64,000 nt of DNA from Chloroflexota bacterium (GTDB lineage: Bacteria > Chloroflexota > Dehalococcoidia > UBA2247 > RBG-13-53-26): contig JAPLHP010000036.1 in assembly GCA_026389585.1 (NCBI GenBank), positions 41,366 through 105,365 on the forward strand, written 5' to 3'. Made by a program: the position numbers and the translations under genes. The notes below the pieces were generated by a model. The model saw only the letters and a program-made list of their open reading frames with translations. It was not told where the DNA came from and did no database searches. Positions 17,573-50,600 of this stretch are shown here, piece by piece; positions within the stretch are counted from its first letter, which is position 1; the number at the start of each line of letters is the position of its first letter.

Positions 17573-17650
17573 CTTCTCTACTCCCTCCACTGCCAATGAA
17601 ATGCAGGTTGTCGGACAAACTATAACACACAAATGGCTGAATCCACAAGC

Positions 17651-32292: not shown

Positions 32293-32296
32293 GCCC

Positions 32297-34070: not shown

Positions 34071-34075
34071 GTGAA

Positions 34076-34131
34076 GGGGGGCAGACACAGCTTCCGCTGG
34101 GGAAGGCCATCCTTCAGCCAACCGACGCAGC
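34076..34131 (+). repeat. 52-bp direct repeat R1 (left boundary of HEPN-like/NTase cassette)
   Basis: GGGGGCAGACACAGCTTCCGCTGGGGAAGGCCATCCTTCAGCCAACCGACGCAG is ~90% identical to 35463-35518. Confidence 0.7.
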
Positions 34132-34169
34132 GTGCTGCTGCCGTCGATGATATCATGAGTGGGCACTGG

Positions 34170-35518: not shown

Positions 35519-35879
35519 ATGATGAGCAAACTCGGATTTCGCACCATGTGAATAGGCTAAAACTGAGTCCGGTCCGCGATAGTGAGCCACGCGGTTCAAT
35601 ATATAGAACTCCAGAACTGACCTTCAAGGCCGCTTTCGCTTTCCCCCTGAAGGCTCGGGCATTGTCCCAACGATATGCCTCCAGATAACAGAGCAAGCCC
35701 AGAGGCTTTGCCGCTTTCCTGGTGGAGACGGGGAAGAGTCGAAATCACATCTTCAATATTTGCAGCGGGGCTCTATCCCGTATGTGTCTAGTCGGACCTC
35801 ATCCAGATGGATCATACATTTCAAGCTTCTGTGTGATGCAACAATCTGGACTTTTGTTACCGCCTCTATTAAGTTCCAC

Positions 35880-36077
35880 ATCTCAGCCACCAACTGCCTT
35901 CTGAATGGTGGTGACGTGCTCTCTTTGCAGCAGATACTCGGGCACTCAAGCCTGGAGATGGTGCGGAGGTATGTGACGTTAGCGTCAGCCCGGGTCATGG
36001 TGCAACACAGGAAGTTCTCGCCGATGGACAGAATGAATCTTGGCAGAATGTGGCTGACTCGAGTGCCTCGCAACTAG
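35880..36077 (+). pseudogene. tyrosine recombinase/integrase C-terminal remnant
   Basis: LLNGGDVLSLQQILGHSSLEMVRRYVTLA matches the integrase C-terminal LGHsss.tT..Y.H region with catalytic Tyr. Upstream catalytic R/H boxes are degraded; only ~65 codons remain. Confidence 0.65.
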
Positions 36078-36952
36078 GGCAGGGACGCACGCAGAGCGGC
36101 AATGATTCGTTCTCCCTTGTTGGGGTCTTCACCAGCCGCACGCTTCTTGGCGACATATTCTTCGAGAATGCCCAGCGCTGCAACGTTTGAAACGTAGCGG
36201 AACAGGCCCGTTGCCCAAGCTGTCGAGCCTGGATTATGTGGATTCGTGTGATATTTCCAGAAATCGATCTCGTATCCTAGCATATCGTCCAGTGCACTGC
36301 TCTTGTCTCCAAAGATCTTGGTTTCTCTGCCAGGGTCTTCAACAAGCTTGGTGATTGCGAAAGCGCCCACCACAAAGCGGTCTCTGCGGTCTGGAGGCTC
36401 GGTGGTGAGAAGGGCTATCTTGCCTACTCTCGCGCCCCTGATCTTTCTGGGGCGGATCATCGTGCCATGTTCATCGGAGTCCCATCCCGCTGCGAAGTAG
36501 AAATCAATCAACGCTGTCGACTCATAGCATGGACTCCGTAGAGCTAGGTCCTGACCAACAAAATCTCTGCATCTGCTGAGTAGGCAGTACGGTCCTCCGA
36601 ATCTTAAATTGTGGACGTATGCTTTGTCACTGCATATGCCCTTGTATCCCTTATCATTCCAGTTGCACTTGAAGGCAATATTGCCATCCTCTTTCTTGCC
36701 AACTTCGCGGCGCTGCAATCCATCCTCGATTTCTCGCGCCAGAGTCTCGATCCTACAGCGCCGGTTCTCAACTATTGTCCGATGTATCTCATTACTGGGA
36801 TTGGCTGCTTCCTGGAGGCGTTGGAACGTCTCCTCCGCCGTTGAAAGGTGTTCTGCTGCCTGTTGGTAGACGAGACCATGGATCAGAGCCCCAATGTTGT
36901 TTAGTTGCTGATCCAGGGACTCGCGGATAGTGCGTAGATCGTCATTGCCCAT
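36074..36952 (-). CDS. hypothetical cysteine-rich protein, last gene of defense operon
   Basis: Start at MGNDDLRTIRESL overlaps the GmrSD stop. Cys cluster CNWNDKGYKGICSDKAYVHNLRFGGPYCLLSRC. No domain recognisable by eye. Confidence 0.45.
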   Translation of the reverse strand: MGNDDLRTIRESLDQQLNNIGALIHGLVYQQAAEHLSTAEETFQRLQEAANPSNEIHRTIVENRRCRIETLAREIEDGLQRREVGKKEDGNIAFKCNWNDKGYKGICSDKAYVHNLRFGGPYCLLSRCRDFVGQDLALRSPCYESTALIDFYFAAGWDSDEHGTMIRPRKIRGARVGKIALLTTEPPDRRDRFVVGAFAITKLVEDPGRETKIFGDKSSALDDMLGYEIDFWKYHTNPHNPGSTAWATGLFRYVSNVAALGILEEYVAKKRAAGEDPNKGERIIAALRASLP

Positions 36953-38858
36953 TAGTTCGTTCCGGATATGCCCACAACCTAACCGCCAAGTCGGCCAGTC
37001 TCTCGCTACGCGTCCTGATCGTAGTCTCGTTCCACACATCGTCATCGGAAAACTGCTGAAAATAGGAGTTGAGGATCAGCAGGCTCTGTTTTGTGATTTC
37101 CGCGCGCTTTGCCCTGAAGGGGCCGTTGCTGACTTCAGAATTGAGCGGTTGGGTCAGCAGTGTCAGGTTGCCGAGGCTGTGAATGGAAGACCAACGCCTC
37201 GATTCCATCTCCTTTTTTTCAGCCGCCTGATGTTCTGGGTAGGGCCATTCTTCTGGCTTGAACTTCTGGGGCATTATGTGCTCAATCGTCAGATTGTTGT
37301 TGATCGGCACAGGTGAAAGCTGCGATTCCTGACTTGGGGTCCGGTTGGCCAATTCGAGGGCAGTGAGAACCATGCGCATCCTCTTGGGGCCGAGGGAATC
37401 GTACAACGGTTCGTACATAAGGCTCTTTAGGAACGCCTCGTTGCCTGGCCAAACAGAGCTATCCCCCTCCAATGAAAGCAATTCGCGACGCACAGACACA
37501 TGACTCGGCATTCCTTCTCTGCTCAGCTTGGTAAGAAGACCAAGAAAAATGCGGTTGTAATTCTTGGGCGTCAGCCTGCATATGGCCCTTCGAACAATGT
37601 AGGACTCAATGTCAGCCAGTATGCGGGCAAACTCCTCTGCTGCTATCTGGTCTCGGTCTTCACACAGCCAGAGCATGAACGGGTAGACGGTTGTCGTGTC
37701 CAGTGCCCGAAGTCTCTGGGCCAGTATTCCTAGCCGACTGGTGTCATCTGCCTCCAGAAGTGAGCGGAATACTGAGCTCGACCGCTTGGCTGTTTCCAGC
37801 TCCAGTTCTAGGGAGCGCTCGGTCAACTCACCGTCCCACCACTCTTTGAATTCCTGGTAAAGATGTCCCATCTTGATCTCGTGACCTGCACGATACGTGA
37901 GATAGTGAAAGAAGAACAAGTCCAGCCGACTGCGGAACAACCTCCCTTGCCTTTCCTTTTCCTTCCAGAACTTGCCTGTCGACCCACCCGCTTCGTCATA
38001 ATCCTTCCACCATTGGTTGTATAGGGCATTCACATCCTTGTTCTGCCTACTGGCATACAGGAAGATGAAGTTCCTGATCAAGTCGGAGGGTTCGAGTGGG
38101 ACACCTCTATAGTTGAGGGTCTCGAATATCACCTGTGGATCGTCCTCCACGTCAAGTTGTATCTCGACGATTTGCACATAACGCATTACCGCTTCAAAGA
38201 GTAAGTTAGCGAGTTCTCTCATCGACTCTTGGCTAGACGTTTGGCTCGGTAGCGCCTCCTCCTCATCAATGCCACTTAGGAATCTCTTGATGACATCGTG
38301 GAAGTAGAAATAGGCTTCGACCAAGGCCGGGCGCGGGGGAACTAGCTTCTTCCGATGGAGCTTCTGCGGATATTTGGCTGCAAGTGCTTCGGCGGATCCT
38401 GCCTTCATCACATTCTTGACATCTTCTTGATAGGCATTCGTGGGCCACACCTTGAATTGCTCATCGGCGTTGTAGAATGGGCCGGGATTACCAGTTAGGC
38501 GGCCGAGCTGCATCTTGAGGTAGTCATCGCCCGACTCGACCACTGCATCTCTAAAGGCAGCCAGGAAGACTTGTAGGGTGAGCAATCGCTGTTGCCCATC
38601 TATGATTTCAGAAGCAGGCATTTGCCTGATCACGGTGGGCACCTGGCTCAGAACAATGGCACCAAGGAAATGCTTGCGAATTGTGTTCCTTGAAGCTCCC
38701 TTATGAACCTGCACCAACCTGGCCTGTTCCGCTATGTCACCCCAAAGCGGTTGCCATTGCTGGTCTTGTGTCCAAACATACCCACGCTGAAAAATCGGCA
38801 CCAGGTAGCGCCGCTGCCTTTCAAATAGATCGAATACGGTGATCTTATCTGTCTTCAT
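36942..38858 (-). CDS. GmrSD-family type IV (modification-dependent) restriction endonuclease, DUF262 + DUF1524
   Basis: 638 aa. N-terminal ParB-like DUF262 with IIDGQQRL motif. C-terminal HNH-like DUF1524 (NNNLTIEHIMPQK...NLTLLTQPLN). Confidence 0.8.
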   Translation of the reverse strand: MKTDKITVFDLFERQRRYLVPIFQRGYVWTQDQQWQPLWGDIAEQARLVQVHKGASRNTIRKHFLGAIVLSQVPTVIRQMPASEIIDGQQRLLTLQVFLAAFRDAVVESGDDYLKMQLGRLTGNPGPFYNADEQFKVWPTNAYQEDVKNVMKAGSAEALAAKYPQKLHRKKLVPPRPALVEAYFYFHDVIKRFLSGIDEEEALPSQTSSQESMRELANLLFEAVMRYVQIVEIQLDVEDDPQVIFETLNYRGVPLEPSDLIRNFIFLYASRQNKDVNALYNQWWKDYDEAGGSTGKFWKEKERQGRLFRSRLDLFFFHYLTYRAGHEIKMGHLYQEFKEWWDGELTERSLELELETAKRSSSVFRSLLEADDTSRLGILAQRLRALDTTTVYPFMLWLCEDRDQIAAEEFARILADIESYIVRRAICRLTPKNYNRIFLGLLTKLSREGMPSHVSVRRELLSLEGDSSVWPGNEAFLKSLMYEPLYDSLGPKRMRMVLTALELANRTPSQESQLSPVPINNNLTIEHIMPQKFKPEEWPYPEHQAAEKKEMESRRWSSIHSLGNLTLLTQPLNSEVSNGPFRAKRAEITKQSLLILNSYFQQFSDDDVWNETTIRTRSERLADLAVRLWAYPERTNGQ

Positions 38859-38910
38859 GAGTCATACACCAAGAAAATACTATGCAGAGAACAGCGTCGG
38901 CTGAGCCCGT

Positions 38911-39084
38911 CTACTTGCGCTTCGGAATCGTGTACGTTCCCTTTGCACCTTGATAGACGTTGAACTTCGACTTGCAGCTTTCGCACTCATAGCGCTTAAC
39001 ATCAGAGCTCCCGTACTTCCACGACCGAATGGGCTTGGTCGAGACAGGTCGACTACATATGGGGCAGTTTGTTGCAGTTACCAT
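38911..39084 (-). CDS. 57-aa zinc-ribbon protein inside the defense operon
   Basis: MVTATNCPICSRPVSTKPIRSWKYGSSDVKRYECESCKSKFNVYQGAKGTYTIPKRK. AAGGAGG RBS 7 nt upstream of the ATG. Below the ORF-table cutoff. Confidence 0.55.
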   Translation of the reverse strand: MVTATNCPICSRPVSTKPIRSWKYGSSDVKRYECESCKSKFNVYQGAKGTYTIPKRK

Positions 39085-39210
39085 ACAGACACCTCCTTGC
39101 CTGGTCCCTTATGGGTTGTCTACGTGACATATGGATGTATATTACTCTTCCTAAGAACAATTCTGCCAGTACCGCTCTGTAGGCCCGGATCGCGTTCTTG
39201 AATTCACTCG

Positions 39211-41976
39211 CTACCATGGCCGCATCAATGCTTCCCTCTTCGCAGCTCCGCTCAAGACCTGGGCACAGGACTCCCAGTCTGTGCGCTCGATTTTCTGATA
39301 ACGGATCTCGAACGGGTGCTTCTCAGGAACGGCATCAATGATGCGCTTGGCTTGCTCCTCCTCACCGATAGCAACGTCAATCCAGACATCTTCAAGTACG
39401 TCAGGAATCTGCCCAAACAGGCTAAATATACTCTGAAGCCTAATGGACAATAATTGGTGAACGCGATCCTCGACAGATCCCAAGTAGCGCATGTTGTAGA
39501 CGTATACAATATCGTTGAGCTGCCCGATACGCTGTATCCTACCTTTGCGTTGTTCGAGACGCGTGGGATTCCATGGAAGGTCCAGGTTGATGAGCGTGCC
39601 GAGTCTCTGAAGGTTCAGCCCCTCAGATGCGGCGTCAGTCCCGAGCAGGAGGCGGATCTGCCCATTACGCACGCCAGCCTTAATCTCCTCCCGGTCGACC
39701 GGCGTGAATGAGCCGTCCTTCCACATGCCGGATTTACCGCTGCCTGCGTAAATAGCGATTGGCTCGTCGGGGAAGTCAAGGACGAGTTCTTTGGCCAGCC
39801 ACTGCACTGAATCATAGTACTGGCTGAAGACGATGCACCCCTTATCGAGCCAGCTTCGCCCCCGGAGGCAATCAAGGACTACGGAGTACTTGGGGTCTCG
39901 CTCCTGATTGGCTTCAAGCGCCTTGACGAATCTTTCGAGCAATACCCGCTCCTCATCGGTCAGAGTCTTTAACGTGCTCAGGGATGCGGCAGGATTCTCA
40001 TCCTCGCTCTCCGCGTCCGAATCCAAGGTGAACGAGCCGAGGTCTCGCCACGACGCCAGCATGGTCTCGGCTGTGGCTTTGCCTGCCGCGATACTGCTGC
40101 CCACCCGGCGCAGGAGGAGCGTGCGAAGAAAACCTGAGCCCTTCATGCGGGCACCAAGCTGCCGACAGAACTCCTCAGCCAGTTGGTATGCATCTCTGAG
40201 GAAGAGGGGTAAGCGGATGGCATCCTCGTCGCGATCCCCTAGAAGTTCGACACGGATCGGTTTTAGGTACGGCTCGCCGGTTTCAGGGTCGATTGTCTCC
40301 TCAAGATACTTGCGGCTCCGCCGTACGATATGGCGGATGAACGGATTATGCTGGTCAACAAAACGAGGGAACATGGCGTGCACACGGGCCTTGTCGGGAG
40401 GATTAAGACGGTCCCAATCGCTGCCGCCGGCAGACACTTCCATGTCGGTCATTCCCAGCGACCGACGCAGGATCTCGAAATCTCGATGCTCGGAGGATGG
40501 GGGTAATGGTGTGCGGACCCATTGCCACATGTCCAGTTCATCCTCCAGCTGTCTCGCCGTGCCCAGTACCAGCGGCAGGGCTCTTTCGGCATGGTGCCAC
40601 TCACTCCATGCGCCACCAAGGACAGCCTCGCTACCACGGCTCAGGATGTCAAGGAGATCCCAAGCCTCCACAGGGCGGATCTGAACGGGTGTCGCAGTCG
40701 CCAGGAGCATGCTCTTGGTGTGCTTTGACAGTTCATAGAGGAATTGAAGCAAGTTGTTCGGATCAGGTTTCTCCCCGTCACGACCTTCGCCCAAGTTTCG
40801 ACGGCGGGCGTTGTGTGCCTCGTCAACGATGATGCATTCATAGTCAAGGTGTTTGAGGTGCTCAGAATCCTCGCACTGAAAGACGGCCCTTGAAGTAGGA
40901 ACAATGCCAACGCGCCGCGGACAATTGCGTATTGCCTGGGGACCAACAGAAGGGTACTCGACACCGCGCTCATCCACCCATTGCTTCCCTGTCCATACGG
41001 CGGAGGGCATGTCAAGCAGGTCGTTGAGCTCATCCCGCCACTGCCAGACAAGCGCTTTCGGTGCGAGCACCAGGATTGGTTTGGTGCTGCATAGGGCCAT
41101 CAGCTCAGCCGCCATGGCGAGCTGAATGGTCTTGCCAAGGCCGACCTGGTCGGCGAGAACAAATCGCGCTCCTCCGGGGCTATTGAGATGTGCATCGAAC
41201 GCCAGCTTCACGAAGAACTTCTGGTGCTCCCAGAGACCCGCCTGCTGACGATAGACCGATGCCTCGATAAAGACCGATGCAGGTGTTGGAGCCACTGGCA
41301 ACGTGCCTGAGGGCCTCGCCCAGTCCTCCACCGAACTTATGACAGAGCGTTTGCTGAGGCGAGCGACATCTTCGATGACAAATTCCGCAAGCGGCACCGC
41401 GGCATGGTGAGTCCATAGGGCATCAAACTCTTCTTGGACCCAGGCCACAGCCTCCGGCGATGAGTCTTCCCACAGAAGTTCGTAATTCAGTGTCCATGCT
41501 GACCGTGATTCATTGACGCTGCCCAAGAAGGCAGTGCGACTCCCATCAGCAAGCATGATTACCCCGGCCTTGCCGTGAACGAGCCCGAAGTACTCATCCG
41601 GGAGCACTCTCACTTGTAGCTTCCCGCTGCGCAGGAACTCGTGAAGACGCGAAAAGCGGTTACGAGTTGCCTCTCCCCCAGATTCGACCAGCGTCTCGGG
41701 ACGCGAGCTACACCACTCCTGTCGAACGGCTGCAGCGGCGGCTCGAGCTGTGGCAACGTCTTGAGGTCGCAGCCCCGAGTTGCACACGATGCGTACAAGT
41801 CCGGTCACGCTCTCAATGGCTTCGCCAGCCACCTCAAGGATAGATCCGGAGAAGTATCCGGCGATGCGGTCATAAGCTTGCGCACCATGCAGGCGGTCTG
41901 TGAAGAATGACCGGTCCAGTCGTTGCCGCCTGGAGGAAAAACGCCGAATTTGGCTGTGGGCAACAGGGTCGTTCAT
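39211..41976 (-). CDS. PLD-family nuclease domain fused to SNF2/DEAD-like helicase
   Basis: N-terminal HKD motif (HGKAGVIM...GSVNES). Helicase motifs: Walker A GLGKT, DEAH box IIVDEAHNARR, C-terminal helicase motif LLLGTDAASEGLNLQ, motif VI QRKGRIQRIGQ. Start taken at MNDPVAHSQ. Confidence 0.8.
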   Translation of the reverse strand: MNDPVAHSQIRRFSSRRQRLDRSFFTDRLHGAQAYDRIAGYFSGSILEVAGEAIESVTGLVRIVCNSGLRPQDVATARAAAAAVRQEWCSSRPETLVESGGEATRNRFSRLHEFLRSGKLQVRVLPDEYFGLVHGKAGVIMLADGSRTAFLGSVNESRSAWTLNYELLWEDSSPEAVAWVQEEFDALWTHHAAVPLAEFVIEDVARLSKRSVISSVEDWARPSGTLPVAPTPASVFIEASVYRQQAGLWEHQKFFVKLAFDAHLNSPGGARFVLADQVGLGKTIQLAMAAELMALCSTKPILVLAPKALVWQWRDELNDLLDMPSAVWTGKQWVDERGVEYPSVGPQAIRNCPRRVGIVPTSRAVFQCEDSEHLKHLDYECIIVDEAHNARRRNLGEGRDGEKPDPNNLLQFLYELSKHTKSMLLATATPVQIRPVEAWDLLDILSRGSEAVLGGAWSEWHHAERALPLVLGTARQLEDELDMWQWVRTPLPPSSEHRDFEILRRSLGMTDMEVSAGGSDWDRLNPPDKARVHAMFPRFVDQHNPFIRHIVRRSRKYLEETIDPETGEPYLKPIRVELLGDRDEDAIRLPLFLRDAYQLAEEFCRQLGARMKGSGFLRTLLLRRVGSSIAAGKATAETMLASWRDLGSFTLDSDAESEDENPAASLSTLKTLTDEERVLLERFVKALEANQERDPKYSVVLDCLRGRSWLDKGCIVFSQYYDSVQWLAKELVLDFPDEPIAIYAGSGKSGMWKDGSFTPVDREEIKAGVRNGQIRLLLGTDAASEGLNLQRLGTLINLDLPWNPTRLEQRKGRIQRIGQLNDIVYVYNMRYLGSVEDRVHQLLSIRLQSIFSLFGQIPDVLEDVWIDVAIGEEEQAKRIIDAVPEKHPFEIRYQKIERTDWESCAQVLSGAAKREALMRPW

Positions 41977-41983
41977 GGTCTCC

Positions 41984-44974
41984 TCATACGTTGTCCTGCC
42001 GGTTCCGTAACGCACCAGCTAGCAACGCCGCCGCCTCGGCATCCTTGTGCCAGTGAACCAACGAAGTGTGATGGCGCAGCGCTGCGAGAAACTCCAGTAT
42101 GTCGATCAGGCGGGCTCGGTTGCTGGCGTAGTCTTTGATCTCCGTGGTGAACCATGTGATGGCTTCGCGTGTGCTGTCCATTTCTGTGGTCATGAAGACT
42201 CCGAACAATGCGTGGCGCACTAATGTGTCGCCGAAGCCATCTCCACCAAGATCCTTACGGCCGAATTCGCTGGCGGTTTTGAGGCGAGTCTGGTTGGCCT
42301 TCGTGCTGGCCAGAAGCGGTTTGTACTCCCTGACGCCGAAGCCGCGGGCGAGTTCTTGATATACCCCATTTCGATACTCACCGTGGCTCTCCATCTCCAA
42401 ACCCTTGAGGTAAAGCCGCTCAACAGCGGCCAAAGATTTCCACAAATGCCTATCAATGCCACGTGGCACCAAGTGGTCGCAGGCGATGGCCACAGCCTTG
42501 CGGATGACATCTTCTACTGGCGATACTTCTCCGCGGGCGCGAGTGCGGGTAAGCTCGTAGTTGACATCTATCTCTTCGATATTCTTGGAGGTGAGCACGC
42601 GTAGGGCAGCAGCATAGGCGGCAAGCTGGTAGTCTGTGTCGGCAAAGCTGGGGTCTCTCTCGTCGTCCATGGCGAGCATCGAGTCGAGCTGGTGTCGGAC
42701 CTCTGTTTCGACCTCAGGGTACACTTCGTCAAGGAAAGATGCCCCCTGCGGGCTCTGCTTGCGGAGGATCAGCAGCACAGTGCCTTGCACATAGTTGCCT
42801 TCCTTAAGAGGTGAGGATGTCTCGGTGGCGATGCACCAAGCTGCGGTTACGCGCAGTCCTGCGGCCCACAGGATGAGAGCCAGATCAGCCCACACGCCAG
42901 CGTCCTGATGGGTGAACATAACAACCTGCAGGCCGTTGTCAGGCATGTGCTGAGCCATGTTGCGGTAGCAGTCGACCATCGCCTTGCGAAAGCTGTCGTC
43001 ACTGCCCTTCACCGCCAGAGCTCGTTTAGAATCTGCATACCATTCTGGAAAGAGTTTGACAAGGTGAGTCTCGTACCAAGCAAGGAAGTATTCGGAGAGT
43101 TCATCATATTGAATGGCATCACCGTACGGGGGATCGGTGATCCACAGATCAGATACGTAGCCGCACTGACGAGCGTCAAGTGCCAGCACTTTGCCGCTGC
43201 CCACCACTTGCGCCCGGTTGATTAGGGCCATCCAAGTTGTTTGGAGGGCTGGCAAAGGCCTGACCCCAAAGTTGGATAGAGTGTTCAAAGCTTGGTTGCT
43301 GAAAGTCTGTTCAGTCTTCTCATTTGCTGCATTGGAGTGCCAACGGCAAAGCCGTGAGTTCCAGTCACTGCACCGGCCTATTGCCAAGACAAGAGCTGCT
43401 TCTTCCGCCGGAGAAGCTCCGGCATCGGCCGCAGCAGCGGCAAGCAAGCCGTTGACGAGAAGTTGCCTCGGTGTGAAGAGGTGGTGCCAGTGTGTCCAGC
43501 CACGCGTCCGAATGGGCTCGTCTGTCTTCACGCCCGGCTCGATCCGGCGACTTGGGATGAAGCCCTTCTGCTGCCAGTCCGTAAAATGCTCCATCAGGAG
43601 ATCCAATACACGCTGCTCACGCGCAAGGTCCTTAGCTGTCGGTGAGCGATAGTACCGCGCGCTGTGCTCCTTCCCTCCCACGTCGGTCCAGGTGTCAACC
43701 CAGCGGATGCAGTATAGGCGCTCGCCGAAAACATCACCATCGCGTGGAACGATATCGCCATTCTCCCAGCCTCTGAGCAAGCTTCTACTCTCGCTGAAGG
43801 TTCCGCGTCCATCTCCCCGTATCGCGCGAATCGGGGTGGGGTGAGCTTTGCACTGCGGGCAAATCAGTTCTGATTCCTTGGCTGTACCTGCTCGGTGTGC
43901 GGCTTCCAGCGCCTCATCCAAGACGCCTTGGACTATCTCGAAATCATAGCAGCAACGCTTGTCATTTGGCACAAGGCGTGCAATCGTTCTGCTGCCCCTT
44001 CCAATAACCCAGGAGGATGCAAGCGGTATGCGCCAGTTGCACTCGGGACACGTGACCTCGACACAATACAAGTAGGCATCGGCCCGCCAGCGTCGGCCCG
44101 TTTTGGGATCAGGCTCGCTGTGTTCAATGCCCCATGCGGTCACTTGGCGATCAACTTGTTCGAAAACAGTTCGCTGGATTCTCTGGACTCCTTCTGCTAC
44201 CTTTGGCACACCCCCCACGATCTTCAACGCGGCCCACGTAAGCAGTGCCGCCACCGGGTTCAAGTCGCTGCCATAGGCCTCACAGCCAATGCGGGCCGCC
44301 TCAAAGGGAACCGACCCGCCACCACAAAAGCAGTCGCCCACCCGAGGGACATGGCCAAAGCGGTTCTGGCCAAGCTCGGCAACTAAGTCAGCAAGCGAGG
44401 CGGCATGGGTACCAAGATGGGCATTGATAATCCGCCACGATTCGGCAGATGGTCCATCAACTTGCTCCGGGCGGACGCAGTATTCCTGCTGTTCGTCGTA
44501 CGATAGGCCGAGGAAAACTCGATGCTGCAGCTCATCCTTCTCGTGGCTTGTAATGCCTTTCTTGAGTTTGGGTTCCGTATCCGTAGAGCCAAGGTCGAAG
44601 TAGCGGCTTTGATCTGTGGGCCCAAGACATCGAAACAACTTGGCCGCCGGTATGTTCTTTGACTTGCGGCCGAGCATTCCGTCTTCATCCATAGTCATCA
44701 GTCGTAGGAAGACTTCTCGGTCTCGGGCTGCGTCAGTAGTTGCGGGCAAGAGCAGACCCAGGATTGTGGCTCGGCAGAGCACAAGGGGTTTACGCCCCCA
44801 CCACTTCCCCAGGCCGGTCAAAGTCTGGCTCTGTTTTGCGGTCCGCTCAGCATAACTCTCCTTCGAGAGCTTCGAGACGGGAAACTGAGTCTCAATTAGG
44901 CATAGCTCGGAACGCTGGAGCGATGCCGTGTGTTGTGCCGTTTCTGTGACTGTGGTCGGCATGTCTCTATTCAT
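41984..44974 (-). CDS. DUF1156 (COG1743) Zn-ribbon-containing DNA amino-methyltransferase
   Basis: 996 aa. N-terminal ETQFPVSKLSKESYAERTAKQ...GKWWGRKP is DUF1156-like. SAM-MTase motif IV WITDPPYGD. Cys clusters CPEC...CPQC. Confidence 0.75.
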   Translation of the reverse strand: MNRDMPTTVTETAQHTASLQRSELCLIETQFPVSKLSKESYAERTAKQSQTLTGLGKWWGRKPLVLCRATILGLLLPATTDAARDREVFLRLMTMDEDGMLGRKSKNIPAAKLFRCLGPTDQSRYFDLGSTDTEPKLKKGITSHEKDELQHRVFLGLSYDEQQEYCVRPEQVDGPSAESWRIINAHLGTHAASLADLVAELGQNRFGHVPRVGDCFCGGGSVPFEAARIGCEAYGSDLNPVAALLTWAALKIVGGVPKVAEGVQRIQRTVFEQVDRQVTAWGIEHSEPDPKTGRRWRADAYLYCVEVTCPECNWRIPLASSWVIGRGSRTIARLVPNDKRCCYDFEIVQGVLDEALEAAHRAGTAKESELICPQCKAHPTPIRAIRGDGRGTFSESRSLLRGWENGDIVPRDGDVFGERLYCIRWVDTWTDVGGKEHSARYYRSPTAKDLAREQRVLDLLMEHFTDWQQKGFIPSRRIEPGVKTDEPIRTRGWTHWHHLFTPRQLLVNGLLAAAAADAGASPAEEAALVLAIGRCSDWNSRLCRWHSNAANEKTEQTFSNQALNTLSNFGVRPLPALQTTWMALINRAQVVGSGKVLALDARQCGYVSDLWITDPPYGDAIQYDELSEYFLAWYETHLVKLFPEWYADSKRALAVKGSDDSFRKAMVDCYRNMAQHMPDNGLQVVMFTHQDAGVWADLALILWAAGLRVTAAWCIATETSSPLKEGNYVQGTVLLILRKQSPQGASFLDEVYPEVETEVRHQLDSMLAMDDERDPSFADTDYQLAAYAAALRVLTSKNIEEIDVNYELTRTRARGEVSPVEDVIRKAVAIACDHLVPRGIDRHLWKSLAAVERLYLKGLEMESHGEYRNGVYQELARGFGVREYKPLLASTKANQTRLKTASEFGRKDLGGDGFGDTLVRHALFGVFMTTEMDSTREAITWFTTEIKDYASNRARLIDILEFLAALRHHTSLVHWHKDAEAAALLAGALRNRQDNV

Positions 44975-44988
44975 GGTTCATCCCGAGT

Positions 44989-45732
44989 CTATTGAGAGCG
45001 GCTCGAATCTGACCCAAAGCCCAGCTGATTCGCCGCTTTTGCTCGCCGCGTTTTCCGTGACTTCCTGGCACTCCCTGTTGAGCTATGGGCTGTGCCCTCT
45101 TGAGCTGTAAGCTGGTCGGATTCGCTCATTGACTGGCTCACTAAGCGGAAGAACTCTGGCACAATCGGCTGATCGGGAGGACGGTCAGAGACCGGGTTCT
45201 CAGTCAGGGCAAATCGCACTGCCTTGCGCCAACCTCGCCCTCGGCCATCGGCGTAGCTGCCGGTAGCCGCCGCCGTCATGGTGTATAGCCACCAGCGCTC
45301 CTCGGGTGTCAGTCCCCGCCAGTTGGCGACCGCCGTAGGTATGAGGGCAGGGTCAGCATCTTCAAGAGCCCAGGTGAGGAGGGTCAGTTCTTTACCCAGC
45401 ATGCGGCTAACCGTATTGTAACCAGCTTTCCAGCGCCCCGGACGTTTGCCCTCTCTCTTGAGGCGCAAGTTGAACTCCGCGCGCACCAAGTCGGCGACTG
45501 CGTTCCATTTCGGCCGATCAAGTTGGCTTTTCACCTGGCCATCAAGACGCTCACCGTAGTGAACCGAATCGGCGATGCGATCGGGATCCCACGACAGATG
45601 TTCACTGATTGTGATGGGTTGCGTCGTGCCAGCAGGAATGTGAACCAGGAAATGGGAAACTGACTGGTTGGGGTCAAAGCCGAAAGTGTCGACAAGCACG
45701 TCCGGACTAGGTTTCTGGTTACGTTCAGCCAC
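44989..45732 (-). CDS. DUF3780-like protein (inferred from position between DUF499 and DUF1156 genes)
   Basis: 247 aa. Position and size match the DUF499-DUF3780-DUF1156-helicase arrangement predicted in defense islands. Family call relies on synteny, not verified motifs. Confidence 0.45.
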   Translation of the reverse strand: MAERNQKPSPDVLVDTFGFDPNQSVSHFLVHIPAGTTQPITISEHLSWDPDRIADSVHYGERLDGQVKSQLDRPKWNAVADLVRAEFNLRLKREGKRPGRWKAGYNTVSRMLGKELTLLTWALEDADPALIPTAVANWRGLTPEERWWLYTMTAAATGSYADGRGRGWRKAVRFALTENPVSDRPPDQPIVPEFFRLVSQSMSESDQLTAQEGTAHSSTGSARKSRKTRRAKAANQLGFGSDSSRSQ

Positions 45733-48700
45733 TATTGCCTCACCTCTGAAGCCTGATAGTCGGTCTTGTTCTCATTGATCCAGTCGAGGAACCCCTGCCC
45801 GCGCTCAAAGTGGAGGGCCGATACCTCGATACCGAGTTGACCTTCGTTGGTGAGCTTGCGGACGGCATCGGCGGCCTCCCGCAGGGCATCCGCACCAAGT
45901 TGGATCTTCTCATGCAGAGTGAGCTCAGCCCAACGGTTGCCCGTCACGCTGACCTTGATTCCACTCATGGACATGGGATGAGCCTTCAGTCTCTCCAGGA
46001 AACCATACGACTCGAGCGTGGTGTTAAACTCATGACGCCTGGTCCACGTCAGGGGTCTATCGGGGTCAATTTGCTTGTCCGTGTCGGGTCTGTCCCAAAG
46101 TATCTCGGCAGTCAACACTTCCGAGACGACGTCGCCGTGCATCGCTACCGCCAGGACGAACCGCGTGCCACGATGGACCTCGAAAGGCTCCTCGTAAGTA
46201 CCACCGGAAACCTTGGGGTCTGAGCCATCCGTGGTGTACTTGATCTCGGTGCGCCCGTCCTTGTTGGGGGCAGCTCGGAGCTCAACAATCTTGTTCCCTC
46301 TCTTGCCCGCGTAGGTCTTGTATTTCAAAGTCAGGCGGTTGCGCCACTTGTGATCCGGGCCAGAAGCATGCGTTCGCGTAGAATCCACGGCCAGAAACGA
46401 GACCTCCATTTCGCTCGTTCGATAAAGACCCTGCTCGACCTTCTGGGAGGCTTCCGTCGCATCAGCGCCGACTTCGGCGTACACAGTGTCGCCGTGCACA
46501 GGCGTAACCTTCAACTCCACCTCTCCAGTATCTTCATGGCGTGAGCGCTCCTGTATCTGCACCGAAGTGGTCTTGGGTGGTGGTGGGTTCCGGTCAACGT
46601 AGCCCGCCGGATCCTCGCGCCAGACCTCACGGTATACAAGATCATCCTTGATAGCATCGAGCGCCTCGCGACGGTGCCACTGCCACTGAGGGTTCATGGC
46701 AGCACGTCGCTTGACTTCGCTCCACAACATAACGGGTGTCGTAAACAGACGCGCTTCAATCTTCTTGCGGAATGTATCGCTCGTAACGTCTTCGGTGTAC
46801 TTCTGCTTGTCCTTCAAGACCTGGATGACCTGGTCCTCGCCGTTGTACTTGTTCCCCTCGTACTTCATCAGGAAGTCAGCAGAAAGGAAGACATCCGTAT
46901 CATTTTGACGGAAGGGGTAGTACAGAGTCGAGAATGTCTCTTTGACCGCTGAGAGGAACTGGCCCAGAATGCGATCCCGGAGTTCATCTGCCTGCTTGAA
47001 CTGAGGGTCCGTCTGAGGAGTCTTGTCCGCCTCCATTTCGTCGAGAATATGTTGGATAGCCTTGAGCCGCTTGGCGCTGTCGATTAGTGTGTCGAAGGTA
47101 TTGCGCGAACCCGTCAAGACGGCGATACGATTCTTGAAGGGAGTCTGCCCGTAGAATTGGACGAGTTGGGGGTTCAGACCCTGGCCAACGTAGGGCTCGG
47201 AGATGACGAGAGAGATGCGATCCTGGAACACTTGAATCTCGTCGATGGACGGCAGCACCAGTACTTCCTGATAGCACCAGCCCATCGGCGGTTTGAAAAG
47301 GGTCTTGAGGCGCTCTCTGAGTTCTTTCAATGCCTGTTCTCGGACATATGCAGTGGACAGCGACTCCAGCTTCGCGACGAGGTTCTGGACGTTCTTGAAG
47401 AACAGCCTGCCGTCACGATTGGAGTGGAGGTACCAGGCTGCAGTGGCAAGCTTCTCGAGAATATCGCTCTTGAGACGGGCCAGATTCCTACCGGGCGCGC
47501 AGAGGTAGCCCACCACTTCCGGGATGGTTAGGCCGACAACAGCATTCGGGACATTGGCCAGCGAAGACATGAAGATGAGCCGACATGCGTCCTGCGTGTC
47601 ATTCGTGCCCAGGTTCTGATCCATGACTTCGGCGACTGCTTTCCCCTGAGATGCAATATCGTGGGCCACGGCGTTGTCCAGTGTGGGGTTGATCTGGCGG
47701 ATTTCCGACAGGGTCTCGGGGTCGTTCAAGTCTATGTTGTGCACGCCAATGAGATACACCTTCTCCGCTTCCCCCGATTGCCACAGTCGCGAGGTGATGA
47801 TGCGCATCAGGCGGATCAGTGCACGGGTCTGCTGGAATCCGGGATTTTCACGAAAGCGTGCATACAGGTCTTTGATCGAAGGGTGGAACGGGTAACTGTC
47901 TTGGATGAACTGCGCAAACTTCTCTGGCGACTGGGCCGTAATGTCCATCTGTCGCGCCTCGCGGATGGCCTTGGCATATGCTTGGGCGACCTCTGTCACC
48001 TCCTCGTTTGGTGGCAGGTCCTTGAACAGGCGCTTCCGCAGGATGTGATAGAACTCATCTGTGTTGATTTGAACCGGCGTCAGGTTCATCGAGTGCCTTT
48101 GGGCCTCGCTCTGAAGCTGCTTCAGCAGGTCGGCGATCTGGGCACTAGCTTCGGCATAAGTGCCGACAAGGTCAGTCAGCACGATGCACACGTTGGCTAG
48201 CTCTTTCTCTGCGACTGCTTCGAAAAGGTTGGTCAGTGCTGTGGCCGTGACGTGCGAAAGATCTGAGTTGCCGACGGCGATTGACTTGGCGTTATCGAGG
48301 TAAGGTGGCAGTTCGTCGAGGAGTATCAGGGTAGGCTTGCCTTTGAGCAGGTTTATCCAGGCTGAGCGGCCCGGAGCCTTCAGCGGCGAATAGTAGTCCT
48401 TGAAGTCGGCATGTCTACCTATCTGACGCGCTATCTCTCCCCAGATACCGTGTGGAACGTCGGTTTCGCGGCCTGAGAAGGCAATGACTCGCACGGGTGG
48501 CAGCGCCTTCGCGCTTGGCAGTCCGGGCAGAACAGCTGCACGGAGTTCCGGATGCTTCGCCAACAGGCCAAGAGTGATGAGGTTATGTGTCTTGCCCCCA
48601 CCCATCGCCTGGGTGAGTTTGAATACTGCCTGCTCCGAACGACCCTCAAGTCGCCGGAGGGCCTCCATAAGCAGAGTTCGCATCCCGTCCGTGACATAGT

Positions 48701-48833
48701 TCTCTTCGAGGAAGGCCCTAGTGTCGATCTTGTCTTCGGCCAGATGCATCAGGTTGAGAACGGTGTCGCGACGAGCCGCGTCGAAGACGCTCTCGCGTGG
48801 TGTGCATAGGGTCTTGATCGATTTCATTTGCAC
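45732..48833 (-). CDS. DUF499 / BrxC-PglY-like P-loop ATPase
   Basis: 1033 aa, Walker A AMGGGKTHNL near the N-terminus, Walker B ILLDELPP. Size and architecture match DUF499. Confidence 0.7.
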   Translation of the reverse strand: MQMKSIKTLCTPRESVFDAARRDTVLNLMHLAEDKIDTRAFLEENYVTDGMRTLLMEALRRLEGRSEQAVFKLTQAMGGGKTHNLITLGLLAKHPELRAAVLPGLPSAKALPPVRVIAFSGRETDVPHGIWGEIARQIGRHADFKDYYSPLKAPGRSAWINLLKGKPTLILLDELPPYLDNAKSIAVGNSDLSHVTATALTNLFEAVAEKELANVCIVLTDLVGTYAEASAQIADLLKQLQSEAQRHSMNLTPVQINTDEFYHILRKRLFKDLPPNEEVTEVAQAYAKAIREARQMDITAQSPEKFAQFIQDSYPFHPSIKDLYARFRENPGFQQTRALIRLMRIITSRLWQSGEAEKVYLIGVHNIDLNDPETLSEIRQINPTLDNAVAHDIASQGKAVAEVMDQNLGTNDTQDACRLIFMSSLANVPNAVVGLTIPEVVGYLCAPGRNLARLKSDILEKLATAAWYLHSNRDGRLFFKNVQNLVAKLESLSTAYVREQALKELRERLKTLFKPPMGWCYQEVLVLPSIDEIQVFQDRISLVISEPYVGQGLNPQLVQFYGQTPFKNRIAVLTGSRNTFDTLIDSAKRLKAIQHILDEMEADKTPQTDPQFKQADELRDRILGQFLSAVKETFSTLYYPFRQNDTDVFLSADFLMKYEGNKYNGEDQVIQVLKDKQKYTEDVTSDTFRKKIEARLFTTPVMLWSEVKRRAAMNPQWQWHRREALDAIKDDLVYREVWREDPAGYVDRNPPPPKTTSVQIQERSRHEDTGEVELKVTPVHGDTVYAEVGADATEASQKVEQGLYRTSEMEVSFLAVDSTRTHASGPDHKWRNRLTLKYKTYAGKRGNKIVELRAAPNKDGRTEIKYTTDGSDPKVSGGTYEEPFEVHRGTRFVLAVAMHGDVVSEVLTAEILWDRPDTDKQIDPDRPLTWTRRHEFNTTLESYGFLERLKAHPMSMSGIKVSVTGNRWAELTLHEKIQLGADALREAADAVRKLTNEGQLGIEVSALHFERGQGFLDWINENKTDYQASEVRQ

Positions 48834-49247
48834 ATCCCTCCTGCCCCGGTCCCATCAGATTGCTCTGGCTGGGCGACCGCGGGCCGATTGTCAATTGTAT
48901 GCCTGATCACGAAATCCTGGCGAAAGCGGCAACATAGCGAAAACAAGGCCTTCTGACAATGCGAATTCTACGACTACCCTTGCTATTGTGCAAGGGATAC
49001 CCTTTTTGGAGCGTGCTCTCCAGGACGCAGATGAAGGGAGTTTGCAGGTAACGAAACAGCGAATTGTTGGATCACAATCTGGACTATTGTTCAACGTTCC
49101 AGCGCTCCGAAACGGCAGCTCTTCTCTTGAACTTGGCAATGATGTAGTATGCATGTAGAATTGGCCAGCACTAAGACGATTGCATTGAAGAGAAGATCGT
49201 AAACAGCGCCGTAATCTTCAGGGAAGATCGGAGGCAGCTAGTAGAAT

Positions 49248-50600
49248 ATGGAAGTGAGAGATCCTCTGTACGGTTTGGTGGAGTATGGGACAGATGAAGA
49301 GAAGATAATAAACAGCATCGTACTTCAGAGGTTGCGAAACATAAAGCAGCTTGCATTGGCTAGCGCTGTCTATCCTGGTGCACATCACTCGAGGTTTGAA
49401 CATAGTATTGGCACCATGCATTTGGCTGGGATGGTAGCGAAGAGGCTGGGGCTAGAAGCGGAAAGGCCTGTTCTGCGACTCGCTGGACTGCTGCATGATG
49501 TTGGGCATGGGCCGTTCTCTCATGTCTCTGAACAAGTTATGGAGGGATATGCAAGTGACATCATGGCCAAATATCATGCAGATGGCGTACACGAATTGAT
49601 CAGTATGATGCTTATTGAGAGGCTTGGCAGCTTGGCAGGAGTGACACTCGAAAGCGGTGTTACATCCGGGATATGCGAGCTTCTCAAGAAACAACCTAGA
49701 AGGTCTTTGCAGCAAGGCATCATCTCGGGTCCGTTGGATGTCGACAAACTTGACTATCTTCGGAGGGATAGCTACTTCGCCGGGGTTCAGTACGGAGCCT
49801 TTGATCTCGATAAGGTGATTCATAGCCTCACCAGGATAAGGATCAGTAGTGAAGAAGAACAACTAGGTTTTCATGAGGAGGGTGTCCATGCAGTTGAACA
49901 GCTCCTACTTGCAAAGTACCACATGAATGTGCAGGTCTATCAGCATAGGATTAGGCGCATAACTGATGCAATGCTGGTTAGTGGCATTAGGTTTGCCTTA
50001 GAGGAAGGAGTTGGTGAAGTCCAAAGGCTTTTCACTGTGGAGGATTCTGATGCTTACCTGCAGTACTATATCTCGAACAATGATAATACTCTCATGGACA
50101 CAGTCCTACAGAAAGGCAAGGAAGGGTCGAGAGAGCTGTTTCAGCGCATAAAGGAGCGCAAACTTCTGAAACAAGTGTTTTCACTCGAGATAAGCAGAGA
50201 CAACTTTCCAGACGCAGTTCAGATGGACAACATATTGCGCTTGTCTGATGCACAATTGCACCAGATAGCACAACGGGCAGTGGAACTCTATTCTGCAACA
50301 GATAGCAGGCTGGATCCAAACCTGGTCATAGTGGACAAACAGACCATCTCTAATCCAACCTTCAAATCACCTCAGACCAGCATTGATCAAGGCACGATAA
50401 TGGTAAAGACGAAGTCTGGACAGAGAAAGGCTTTCCCAGACATATCCACTATCTTTCGGAACCCTAGCATAGATCCCAAAGTCGAGGTTCTCTACGTCTA
50501 CTTGCCTCTGGATTGGCTCGGAAGCAAGGGGGACAGGGATGCGTTCATCAACCAAAGATATGATACAATGGCTGAACAAGTGATGGAGGTGGTCAAATGA
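49248..50600 (+). CDS. HD-domain phosphohydrolase of the dGTPase/SAMHD1-like family
   Basis: HSRFEHSIGT...LLHDVGHGPFSH...DKLDYLRRDSYFAGV motifs of dNTP triphosphohydrolase-type HD proteins. Confidence 0.75.
   Translation: MEVRDPLYGLVEYGTDEEKIINSIVLQRLRNIKQLALASAVYPGAHHSRFEHSIGTMHLAGMVAKRLGLEAERPVLRLAGLLHDVGHGPFSHVSEQVMEGYASDIMAKYHADGVHELISMMLIERLGSLAGVTLESGVTSGICELLKKQPRRSLQQGIISGPLDVDKLDYLRRDSYFAGVQYGAFDLDKVIHSLTRIRISSEEEQLGFHEEGVHAVEQLLLAKYHMNVQVYQHRIRRITDAMLVSGIRFALEEGVGEVQRLFTVEDSDAYLQYYISNNDNTLMDTVLQKGKEGSRELFQRIKERKLLKQVFSLEISRDNFPDAVQMDNILRLSDAQLHQIAQRAVELYSATDSRLDPNLVIVDKQTISNPTFKSPQTSIDQGTIMVKTKSGQRKAFPDISTIFRNPSIDPKVEVLYVYLPLDWLGSKGDRDAFINQRYDTMAEQVMEVVK

Follow-up and report, generated by a model that had tools for sequence, protein, structure and literature searches.

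Genes of the Locus

The window analyzed here is the whole 64,000-nucleotide stretch of DNA, taken from a Chloroflexota MAG. Seven ORFs are found on its minus strand at positions 36074 to 48833, as a preliminary description had proposed, and the domains predicted there are confirmed for every gene but the last, which encodes a 292-aa protein. The domains recovered by Pfam search are DUF499, DUF3780, DUF1156, PLDc_2/SNF2/Helicase_C and GmrSD_N/GmrSD_C.

The mtsA gene (45732 to 48827) encodes a 1031-aa DUF499 AAA+ ATPase of the ORC/Cdc6 clade with C-terminal FnIII-like domains. The protein matches Pfam DUF499 (E = 8.7e-31), with Fn3_assoc/CHB_HEX_C_1 at residues 850-910, the full length of the PADLOC DUF499 model PDLC02192 (1e-208), and, end to end, NCBIfam NF042962 DUF499_antiphage (4.6e-257; 855.8 bits, against a cut-off of 1200). 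It carries Walker A K79 and Walker B E172. The ORF reaches upstream to a GTG at 48833, and the true start is likely the ATG at 48827, which is preceded by the ribosome binding site (RBS) GGAGGG. The mtsB gene (44989 to 45732) has a GTG start and encodes a standalone DUF3780 protein of 247 aa, in which the domain covers residues 17-183 and is followed by a basic, low-complexity tail of approximately 65 aa. It matches Pfam DUF3780 (3e-48), PADLOC PDLC02191 (9e-44) and NCBIfam NF042961 (1.2e-46; 158.9 bits, against a cut-off of 200).

The mtsC gene (41984 to 44974) encodes a predicted N6-adenine DNA methyltransferase of the DUF1156 type that would also serve as the specificity subunit (996 aa). 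It matches Pfam DUF1156 (3.8e-21), PADLOC PDLC02189 (DUF1156_MTase; 3e-291) and NCBIfam NF042963 (1351.8 bits, over the cut-off of 1000), and includes DPPY at 614-617 and FCGGGS near 216. The mtsD gene (39211 to 41976) encodes a 921-aa protein in which an N-terminal HKD/PLD nuclease is fused to an SF2 (Snf2-like) helicase. Its matches are Pfam PLDc_2, SNF2-rel_dom and Helicase_C, PADLOC PDLC02193 PLD_Helicase (1e-239) and NCBIfam NF042964 (1255.5 bits, over the cut-off of 1100), and its motif residues include H134 (HGK), K282 in GLGKT, and DEAH at 385. This ORF reaches upstream to a GTG at 42015; the ATG at 41976, with the RBS GAGGAG, is likely the true start.

The five large genes had been described as overlapping or abutting. 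This is correct for mtsA and mtsB, which overlap by 1 nt (TAGTG), and for the GmrSD gene and the 292-aa gene, which overlap by 11 nt (ATGGGCAATGA), but not for mtsD and the GmrSD gene, which lie 352 nt apart (gaps of 126 nt before and 52 nt after a zinc-ribbon ORF of 174 nt). The gap between mtsB and mtsC is 14 nt, and mtsC and mtsD are separated by 7 nt with the ATG 41976 start of mtsD but would overlap by 32 nt with the GTG 42015 start. Because the seven genes are co-oriented and no terminator-like sites were detected in the intergenic gaps, including that between mtsD and the downstream genes, read-through may co-express all of them and hence permit some functional integration. No minus-strand promoter-like sites were found in the gaps between the seven genes, and a single transcription unit is plausible.

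Promoter-like sites occur in the divergent intergenic region upstream of mtsA (48828 to 49247), where minus-strand sigma-70-like sequences lie at 48992-48965, 48959-48931 and 48923-48894. This region also includes an 87-aa ORF (48891 to 49154) with no Pfam match.

Identity of the Four-Gene Core

The preliminary description regarded the locus as a defense operon with a BREX-related core of DUF499, DUF3780, DUF1156 and helicase genes, a module that Makarova and colleagues are said to have predicted in 2011 from defense-island statistics. Both points agree with the profile matches. Judged by its sequence, the core (39211 to 48827) is a complete, motif-intact, four-gene MANTIS, also termed Gao_RL, GAO_29 or the Type-2 BREX-related (BR) system. 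This assignment follows from the full-length PADLOC matches (1e-208 to 3e-291), from the NCBIfam anti-phage equivalogs NF042961 to NF042964, of which those for MtsC and MtsD score over their curated cut-offs, and from the published Type-2 BR architecture, which comprises a DUF499 protein with FnIII-like domains, a standalone DUF3780 protein, a DUF1156 methyltransferase and an HKD-Snf2 protein. The window genes share with described MANTIS loci this composition, the DPPY motif, the identical gene order and tight linkage (Shaw et al. bioRxiv 10.64898/2026.09.23.753747; Rakesh & Krishnan NAR 2026, PMC12839542). By their scores, MtsA and MtsB are divergent members that fall under the strict NCBI equivalog cut-offs. 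The window locus also differs from those described in the divergence of its Chloroflexota sequences and in the basic tail of MtsB. An MtsR repressor is present in only some MANTIS operons (10.64898/2026.09.23.753747), and no recognizable MtsR (Arc/CopG) gene was found in the region upstream of mtsA.

Every residue that was mutated in the P. aeruginosa reference system has a conserved counterpart. Its K80/E174, D621/Y624 and H122/K260, mutation of which abolishes methylation or restriction (10.64898/2026.09.23.753747), correspond collinearly to K79/E172, D614/Y617 and H134/K282 in the window proteins.

The arrangement of the core is also conserved. The order A-B-C-D occurs in every one of the 24 metagenome loci that contain all four mts genes, and all four are present in 18/18 loci with enough upstream sequence. 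Examples annotated by PGAP are found on Thermomicrobium and Desulfosarcina plasmids, a 2026 catalogue lists the Type-2 BR system in 1120 taxa, and NCBI equivalog models already cover all four core proteins. The core is an ordinary copy of a phage-defense system that is already described and automatically annotated. The N-terminal PLD domain, which had been listed as an extra part, is instead the defining synapomorphy of Type-2 BR systems and of MtsD. Nor is the mechanism essentially uncharacterized, as had been stated, where the core is concerned: the September 2026 preprint works it out in P. aeruginosa (Shaw et al. bioRxiv 10.64898/2026.09.23.753747), and Gao et al., as they appear in reference 6 of that preprint, are credited with restriction assays of Gao_RL.

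On the model of the P. aeruginosa system, to which these proteins are homologous, the AAA+ ATPase MtsA would place the methyltransferase MtsC on a short asymmetric site. N6-adenine hemimethylation would be stimulated by MtsB, with ATP hydrolysis by MtsA leading to turnover. MtsABC would also recognize unmethylated sites on incoming DNA, best as inverted pairs, and would license MtsD, a presumed dimeric PLD-nuclease and SF2 translocase, to cut.

An equivalence to Hma (helicase-methylase-ATPase), a Type-1 BR system (PMC12839542), had been considered possible. Hma likewise comprises a DUF499 ATPase, a DUF1156-type methyltransferase and an SF2 helicase-nuclease; it belongs with MANTIS to the DUF499-centered BREX-related group, hosts embedded or adjacent accessory defense genes, and its PADLOC models match the three large core proteins (HmaC 7e-55, HmaB 1.5e-28, HmaA 7.5e-35). 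However, these partial matches fall far short of the end-to-end matches of the Type-2 models for DUF499, DUF1156_MTase and PLD_Helicase (1e-208, 3e-291 and 1e-239). A true Hma locus (L020) shows the reverse pattern: its E-values are 0 for the Hma models but only 1e-42, 3e-24 and 7e-34 for those of Type 2. Moreover, DUF3780 is missing from Hma, whose helicase has a TUDOR domain at its N terminus and a PD-(D/E)XK REase at its C terminus, whereas the helicase of the core has the N-terminal HKD/PLD domain. On this profile comparison, the Hma reading appears already refuted, and its probability is close to nil.

The Downstream Genes

The zinc-ribbon ORF (38911 to 39084) encodes 57 aa with a CxxC...CxxC pattern and has, as previously noted, its own strong RBS; this sequence, AAGGAGGTG, lies 7 nt ahead of the ATG. 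It is probably a real small gene and possibly encodes a small regulator. Only one homologue was found among 5.8 billion proteins, a 63-aa protein (P0121; 50% identity) that retains the four cysteines and the FNVY.G...YTIPK motif, and whose gene adjoins an N6_N4 DNA methylase in divergent orientation. The PHROG match is weak (3.8e-4).

The GmrSD gene (36942 to 38858) encodes a 638-aa protein of the type IV (modification-dependent) restriction enzyme family. Pfam (GmrSD_N 1.6e-35, GmrSD_C 1.6e-23) and PADLOC (mREase_IV 2.6e-92, HEC-06 1.4e-60) agree with the earlier type IV assignment, and the motifs DGQQR at 87, EHIMP at 526 and NLTLL at 564 indicate that the enzyme is intact. Enzymes of this family are expected to cut DNA with hypermodified bases, such as that of phages that evade methylation-based restriction.

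The 292-aa protein (36074 to 36952) has no match in Pfam, PADLOC, NCBIfam or PHROG, and sequence profiles did not connect it with EVE, YTH or ASCH. It has 172 homologues of approximately 293 aa. It had been described as a cysteine-rich unknown. The first part is apt, in that it has six cysteines, five of which show full or near-full conservation in the family (C96, C107, C123, C128 and C142). The second is superseded: AF2 models (pLDDT 79.6 and 78.4) predict an N-terminal three-helix bundle and a C-terminal PUA-like (EVE/YTH/ASCH) domain, with low confidence (pLDDT below 50) in the cysteine-cluster segment, so the protein can be assigned a predicted PUA-like EVE/YTH reader fold. Such a non-catalytic reader would bind modified DNA bases and perhaps widen or gate the specificity of the neighboring nuclease, or act alone.

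Alternatively, the 292-aa protein may play no part in defense. It would then be a stand-alone nucleic-acid binder, for instance a regulator or a reader of RNA modifications, and would lie next to the GmrSD gene by chance. Its homologues in 11 genome loci, and in one further locus (L025), have mostly housekeeping neighbors (Fer4, CNNM, SelA, GlnE, Dus), PADLOC has no model for it, and PUA-like domains also read RNA modifications, with YTH hits arising in the fold assignment. However, several homologues directly follow type I or type III-like R-M genes, adjoin a HEPN-RES or an AIPR gene or lie within Hma. Relatives of the module are fused to HNH_2 nucleases or HhH-GPD DNA glycosylases, which points to DNA, and the gene overlaps the GmrSD stop. 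A chance neighbor is therefore a minority reading, although one with appreciable weight, and a predicted reader of modified DNA bases is preferred.

Relation of the Core to the Downstream Genes and Comparison with Known Systems

Together, the zinc-ribbon, GmrSD and 292-aa genes form a tail (36074 to 39084), for which the preferred interpretation is a type IV module that was acquired separately and lies juxtaposed to the core, like BrxU beside BREX. This reading rests on the 126-nt gap after mtsD, on lower GC content (0.51-0.53 at 36-39 kb versus 0.56-0.59 at 40-49 kb, a step of approximately 5 points), on the report that MANTIS is standalone, and on conservation. Whereas the A-B-C-D order is constant, no zinc-ribbon, GmrSD or reader homologue is present at any of the 23 MANTIS relatives whose sequence continues downstream for 3 kb or more. 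Other genes, including Mrr, YhcG/DUF1016, NucS-like and Uma2, are found there instead.

The preliminary description counted the tail genes as parts of one operon that would combine self-methylation with modification-dependent restriction. On this view, the tail proteins would be functional subunits of an enlarged, integrated MANTIS. Consistent with this proposal are the shared strand with no terminator-like site from mtsD to the tail, the strong RBS of the zinc-ribbon gene, and the 11-nt overlap of the GmrSD and reader genes. Also, on one short contig (L053), mtsD is followed after approximately 60 nt by a divergent DUF262 gene, an independent adjacency by which the MANTIS-GmrSD pairing recurs and may be selected. 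The bona fide Hma locus L020 harbors a distant homologue of the reader, and according to the literature EVE and GmrSD recur at BR/BREX loci, GmrSD being listed among their auxiliary effectors. Against the proposal stand the absence of the tail genes from all 23 relatives, the GC step, the gap, the many different nucleases downstream of or embedded in related MANTIS loci, and the lack of a fixed genomic partner for the reader family in at least 15 other loci. Moreover, the Mts operon alone is reported to restrict, and all four Mts proteins are needed for this (10.64898/2026.09.23.753747). An integrated system is therefore improbable. The locus very probably consists of two juxtaposed modules within a defense island, a canonical MANTIS and a separately acquired type IV unit, and the only new element of the tail would be the unannotated protein predicted to read modified bases.

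BREX with embedded BrxU (pEFER island; Picton et al. 2021, PMC8565348) is the precedent for complementary coverage. There too, a methylation-based BrxC/DUF499-type system adjoins a GmrSD-family type IV enzyme, and GmrSD and MANTIS might similarly protect against both unmodified and hypermodified phage DNA. In contrast to BREX, the partner in the window is MANTIS, which lacks PglZ and has a PLD-helicase as its effector. The GmrSD gene, moreover, is not embedded like BrxU but lies downstream of the core, after the zinc-ribbon ORF and before the overlapping reader gene.

Bell et al. 2020 (PMC7641849) report standalone EVE proteins as neighbors of COG1743-DUF499-Snf2-nuclease operons and of type I R-M systems, and the 292-aa gene likewise ends such an operon. 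The HNH fusions of its relatives recall type IV enzymes with PUA-like domains (VcaM4I, TagI and, in its N-terminal domains, archaeal McrB; PMC7641849). Unlike these proteins, the 292-aa protein matches no EVE, ASCH or YTH Pfam profile, adds the conserved cysteine cluster and predicted three-helix bundle, and, in contrast to the type IV enzymes, carries no catalytic domain.

Layout of the seven genes

Seven ORFs run in the same direction on the minus strand at 36074-48833, as the preliminary description stated, and its domain calls were borne out by profile search. The core at 39211-48827 consists of mtsA (1033-aa ORF, DUF499 and Fn3-associated domains), mtsB (247 aa, DUF3780), mtsC (996 aa, DUF1156) and mtsD (934-aa ORF, PLDc_2, SNF2 and Helicase_C). 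The tail at 36074-39084 comprises a 57-aa zinc-ribbon ORF, a GmrSD gene (638 aa, GmrSD_N and GmrSD_C) and a last ORF of 323 aa as listed, or 292 aa when counted from the ATG at 36952. Profile search gave no family match for the 57-aa ORF or the last ORF.

The genes had also been described as overlapping or abutting. This is correct within mtsA-D, where mtsA and mtsB overlap by 1 nt, mtsB and mtsC are 14 nt apart, and mtsC and mtsD are separated by 7 nt, given an mtsD start at ATG 41976 with a GAGGAG ribosome-binding site (RBS). It is also correct for the GmrSD and 292-aa genes, which overlap by 11 nt and appear to be translationally coupled in the window. However, the interval from the core to the GmrSD gene consists of a 126-nt gap, the 57-aa ORF (RBS AAGGAGGTG) and a 52-nt gap, and close junctions are confined to the two blocks. 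Neither gap contains terminator-like or minus-strand promoter-like sites, and one transcript for all seven genes is possible, judging from the sequence. The GC content is 0.56-0.59 at 40-49 kb, compared with 0.51-0.53 at 36-39 kb. No gene for an MtsR repressor is recognisable upstream of mtsA, where the sole ORF encodes 87 aa and has no Pfam match.

Assignment of the core to MANTIS

Type-2 BREX-related (BR) systems have been found in 1120 taxa (PMC12839542). They are defined by a standalone DUF3780 gene and by a helicase that has lost its TUDOR domain and carries an N-terminal HKD nuclease instead, and their DUF499 proteins often have two FnIII-like domains (PMC12839542). The system known as Gao_RL or Gao_29 has been renamed MANTIS by Shaw et al. 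(bioRxiv 10.64898/2026.09.23.753747). In a P. aeruginosa MANTIS operon, hemimethylation of an asymmetric 6-bp site by MtsC requires MtsB together with ATP binding and hydrolysis by MtsA (10.64898/2026.09.23.753747). Restriction requires all four proteins and both ATPases, and is best at inverted unmodified sites (10.64898/2026.09.23.753747).

PADLOC models dedicated to this quartet match the core end to end. The DUF499 model (PDLC02192) matches MtsA over its full length at 1e-208, and the DUF3780, DUF1156_MTase and PLD_Helicase models match MtsB, MtsC and MtsD at 9e-44, 3e-291 and 1e-239. NCBIfam has four "anti-phage-associated" equivalogs for the quartet (NF042961-NF042964). MtsC and MtsD exceed the cut-offs (NF042963, 1351.8 bits versus 1000; NF042964, 1255.5 versus 1100), and the alignments of MtsA and MtsB also run end to end, with scores below the cut-offs (855.8 versus 1200 and 158.9 versus 200). 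MtsB is a standalone DUF3780 protein (Pfam 3e-48) encoded between mtsA and mtsC, a Type-2-specific trait. In MtsD, PLDc_2 at residues 114-201 precedes SNF2 and Helicase_C, so that an N-terminal HKD/PLD domain replaces TUDOR. The fusion of PLD to the helicase, previously listed as an extra part, is a defining trait of Type-2 BR.

Residues mutated in the P. aeruginosa proteins have collinear counterparts in the window. The intact Walker A and B motifs of MtsA (K79, E172) correspond to K80/E174, D614/Y617 of MtsC, whose DPPY motif lies at 614, to D621/Y624, and H134/K282 of MtsD to H122/K260. In the PDB, no MtsA structure was found by sequence, and the matches to MtsD are generic Snf2 proteins only. 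Past its DUF3780 domain, MtsB has a basic, low-complexity C-terminal tail of about 65 aa (residues ~184-247; 44989-45180, minus strand), unlike the ASCH or RAMA fusions that certain Type-2 BR systems are reported to have.

With MtsD as the query, a scan of metagenomes retrieved 65 loci at 51-80% identity. The order A-B-C-D is kept in all 24 loci that contain the four genes, and wherever a locus extends 7.3 kb or more upstream (18 loci), all four are present. PGAP-annotated plasmids of Thermomicrobium roseum and Desulfosarcina carry the same quartet. Together, the profiles, the published definition, the conserved residues and the synteny show that the core is a complete and unremarkable copy of MANTIS (Type-2 BR, Gao_RL), a system that is known, already annotated and recently characterised.

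Two other assignments do not fit. Hma, which is Type-1 BR (PMC12839542), had been tentatively equated with this locus, and is rejected on profile scores and architecture. PADLOC Hma models match the core in part (HmaC 7e-55, HmaB 1.5e-28, HmaA 7.5e-35), whereas the Type-2 models match end to end, and a true Hma locus (L020) reaches E = 0 with HmaA, HmaB and HmaC. The architecture also differs: Hma has an HmaA-type helicase with a TUDOR N-terminus and a C-terminal REase and lacks DUF3780, whereas the core includes a DUF3780 gene and its helicase has PLD at the N-terminus. BREX of types 1-6 combines the phosphatase PglZ with BrxC and PglX. PADLOC and Pfam detected no PglZ among the seven proteins and 10 flanking ORFs, and PglX models match MtsC weakly (1.8e-12). 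The label for the core is corrected here from Hma to MANTIS.

In 17 of 38 MANTIS loci, mtsC and mtsD are separated by an insert longer than 600 nt, a pattern that resembles the known embedded-gene hotspot of Hma. Extra ORFs covering 0.6-2.2 kb are located there in L028, L029, L036, L037, L039, L040, L044, L050 and L059, and further ones in L061, L067, L071, L072 and L074-L076. An "ATP-binding protein" gene is inserted between mtsC and mtsD on the Desulfosarcina plasmid (L093, 14020-15477). Downstream or embedded ORFs of the relatives vary, and include YhcG/DUF1016, Mrr, NA-iREase, NucS-like, Uma2, AAA_13 and Fic proteins, and TIR in Desulfosarcina.

The 292-aa protein and its defence-island setting

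No sequence-level annotation was obtained for the 292-aa protein (36074-36952, minus strand) from Pfam, PADLOC, NCBIfam or PHROGs, nor from PDB sequences by profile search. Its family comprises 172 homologues of about 293 aa, mostly metagenomic and without Pfam annotation. The family conserves the motifs KCNWND, GAGWD, LTT and GLFRY as well as five Cys residues. W98, W232, W246, F153 and Y253 are invariant and W157 is nearly so; these aromatics are compatible with a modified-base aromatic pocket, for which they are not diagnostic. AF2 models (pLDDT 79.6 and 78.4) have three parts: an N-terminal three-helix bundle, a Cys-rich segment of low confidence, and a beta-rich C-terminal domain that is predicted to adopt a PUA-like beta-barrel fold. 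The EVE, ASCH and YTH Pfam families match none of 42 family members at E <=1, and comparison with PDB sequences likewise revealed no EVE, ASCH or YTH match. A viral origin of the family was rejected on the lack of relatives in IMG/VR, and PHROGs also holds none.

A profile search of 1.84 billion representatives yielded 607 clusters, and most of these share only the Cys-cluster and PUA-like module, which is thus present in about 600 clusters at 50% identity. In long members, it is fused to an HNH_2 endonuclease (P0224 and P0240, 668-777 aa) or to an HhH-GPD/EndoIII-type glycosylase (P0130 and P0139, 496-525 aa). One of the glycosylase fusions also carries a double zinc ribbon. These fusions argue that the module targets DNA, and the four proteins are candidates for new modification-dependent nucleases and glycosylases. 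From the fold and the fusions, we infer that the 292-aa protein is a non-catalytic reader of modified bases.

Genomic contexts of the family vary. Homologues follow a type III-like R-M system (L003) or type I R-M systems (L005/L006), lie beside HEPN-RES (L024) or AIPR and a resolvase (L026), or occur amid housekeeping genes (L025 and further genome loci). Among 23 loci with reader homologues, there is no constant pairing with GmrSD or MANTIS; the exception is a homologue in L020 that is 27% identical, lacks the helical bundle and is embedded in the bona fide Hma locus. This locus, at 4200-17575 of a Ca. Solibacter MAG, has three genes between HmaA and HmaB. One encodes 199 aa, the distant homologue of the Cys-cluster/PUA-like module; the others encode 549 aa with weak matches to pAgo-associated SIR2/PNTD, and a 409-aa unknown protein. 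Bell et al. (2020) reported standalone EVE proteins beside type I R-M systems and beside operons of the COG1743-DUF499-Snf2-nuclease kind (PMC7641849).

The family might represent an undescribed class of stand-alone DNA-modification readers, built from a three-helix bundle, a Cys cluster that possibly binds zinc and a divergent PUA-like domain. Such a protein would act in trans and confer specificity on, or license, the restriction nucleases next to it, which are GmrSD in the window and type I, type III-like and Hma systems at other loci, and HNH nucleases and HhH-GPD glycosylases would have captured the module to yield new type IV-like enzymes. We put this proposal forward tentatively and consider it rather unlikely to hold. 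What is new at this locus is the assignment, by predicted fold and fusions, of an unannotated PUA-like reader family. The family, with its HNH and glycosylase fusions, is missed by current defence-finder profile sets, and its characterisation could uncover new modification-dependent restriction specificities.

The locus lies in a defence island. Downstream of the 292-aa gene, an MNT-type protein with a wHTH and a minimal nucleotidyltransferase (34566-35198, minus strand) matches the PADLOC candidate PDC-M05A end to end at 2e-75. The adjacent downstream ORF (164 aa, 33672-34166, minus strand) has no family match; it is a candidate partner of the MNT-type protein and may be HEPN-like. Between the MNT-type gene and the 292-aa gene lies the 3' (C-terminal) remnant of a tyrosine recombinase (35760-36077, plus strand; …LGHSSLEMVRRY…), of which only the last ~40 residues match Pfam Phage_integrase (5.9e-5). 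The remnant runs convergently towards the 3' end of the 292-aa gene, and the frames upstream of the remnant look degraded. A pair of adjacent tRNA genes, tRNA-Arg(TCG) and tRNA-His(GTG), is located at 27049-27202 (minus strand), about 6 kb from the proposed island start, with a two-component system (30910-33103) in between.

Upstream of mtsA and divergent from it, a 450-aa HD and HD_assoc_2 protein (49248-50600, plus strand) has a weak PADLOC dGTPase match (2e-10). An overlapping 199-aa plus-strand ORF, which extends to 51196, has a weak DarG-like match (1e-6). The two may form a further defence gene pair; their GC content (49248-51196) is low, at 0.47-0.48. A 382-aa RmrA-like protein of the XRE-HTH/ImmA-type peptidase kind (52229-53377, minus strand; PADLOC RmrA 6e-29, capP 2e-24) would stretch the island to about 53.4 kb. 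It is adjoined by a 166-aa ORF with weak PDC-S70 matches (within 51728-53377, minus strand).

The GmrSD module and comparison with known systems

The GmrSD protein has an N-terminal DUF262 domain (GmrSD_N, 1.6e-35 in Pfam) and a C-terminal DUF1524 HNH-like nuclease domain (GmrSD_C, 1.6e-23). Its motifs are intact, with DGQQR at 87, the HNH-like EHIMP at 526 and NLTLL at 564. As a type IV enzyme of the GmrSD family, it would be expected to perform NTP-dependent cleavage of DNA with modifications of the hmC or glucosyl-hmC type. The only homologue found for the zinc-ribbon ORF is 50% identical and lies beside a DNA methylase on an otherwise uninformative 1.5-kb contig. Because this homologue retains all four Cys residues and the ORF has a strong RBS, the ORF is probably a real gene.

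Conserved synteny, proposed earlier as a check, holds for the core but not for the tail: tblastn detected no homologue of the zinc ribbon, GmrSD or the 292-aa protein in any of the 23 relatives whose sequence continues for 3 kb or more past mtsD. Nor do the 65 MtsD-related loci show a conserved pairing of the reader with GmrSD or MANTIS; the exception there is a divergent DUF262 gene after mtsD in L053. The MANTIS authors regard it as a standalone system for which the Mts proteins alone are required (10.64898/2026.09.23.753747). Given this view, the GC step and the changing downstream genes of the relatives, we regard the tail as a type IV module that was acquired separately. The earlier defence reading stands in outline, but its extras are either a defining feature of the system or a non-conserved neighbouring module. 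The mechanism is also not essentially uncharacterised where the core is concerned, as that of MANTIS was recently described (10.64898/2026.09.23.753747). The core itself matters little, being one more Chloroflexota example of a mechanistically dissected system catalogued in more than 1000 taxa.

The DUF262 gene of L053 (~5850-7085, plus strand) is very divergent and GmrSD_N-like, and lies on the same strand about 60 nt past mtsD. It has IPTFQRE… and DGQQR motifs, and the short contig stops within it. This is an independent MANTIS-DUF262 adjacency, consistent with the variable auxiliary nucleases, including GmrSD, published around BREX and BR loci. Six supplementary files of PMC12839542 do not contain the term "GmrSD" and so yield no per-subtype count of it beside Type-2 BR. 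The adjacency also agrees with the experimentally studied pair of BREX and BrxU (PMC8565348). The window adds a further case in which a BREX-related system based on methylation and a type IV enzyme of the GmrSD family naturally occur side by side. It supports the idea that such islands protect against unmodified as well as hypermodified phage DNA by combining defences.
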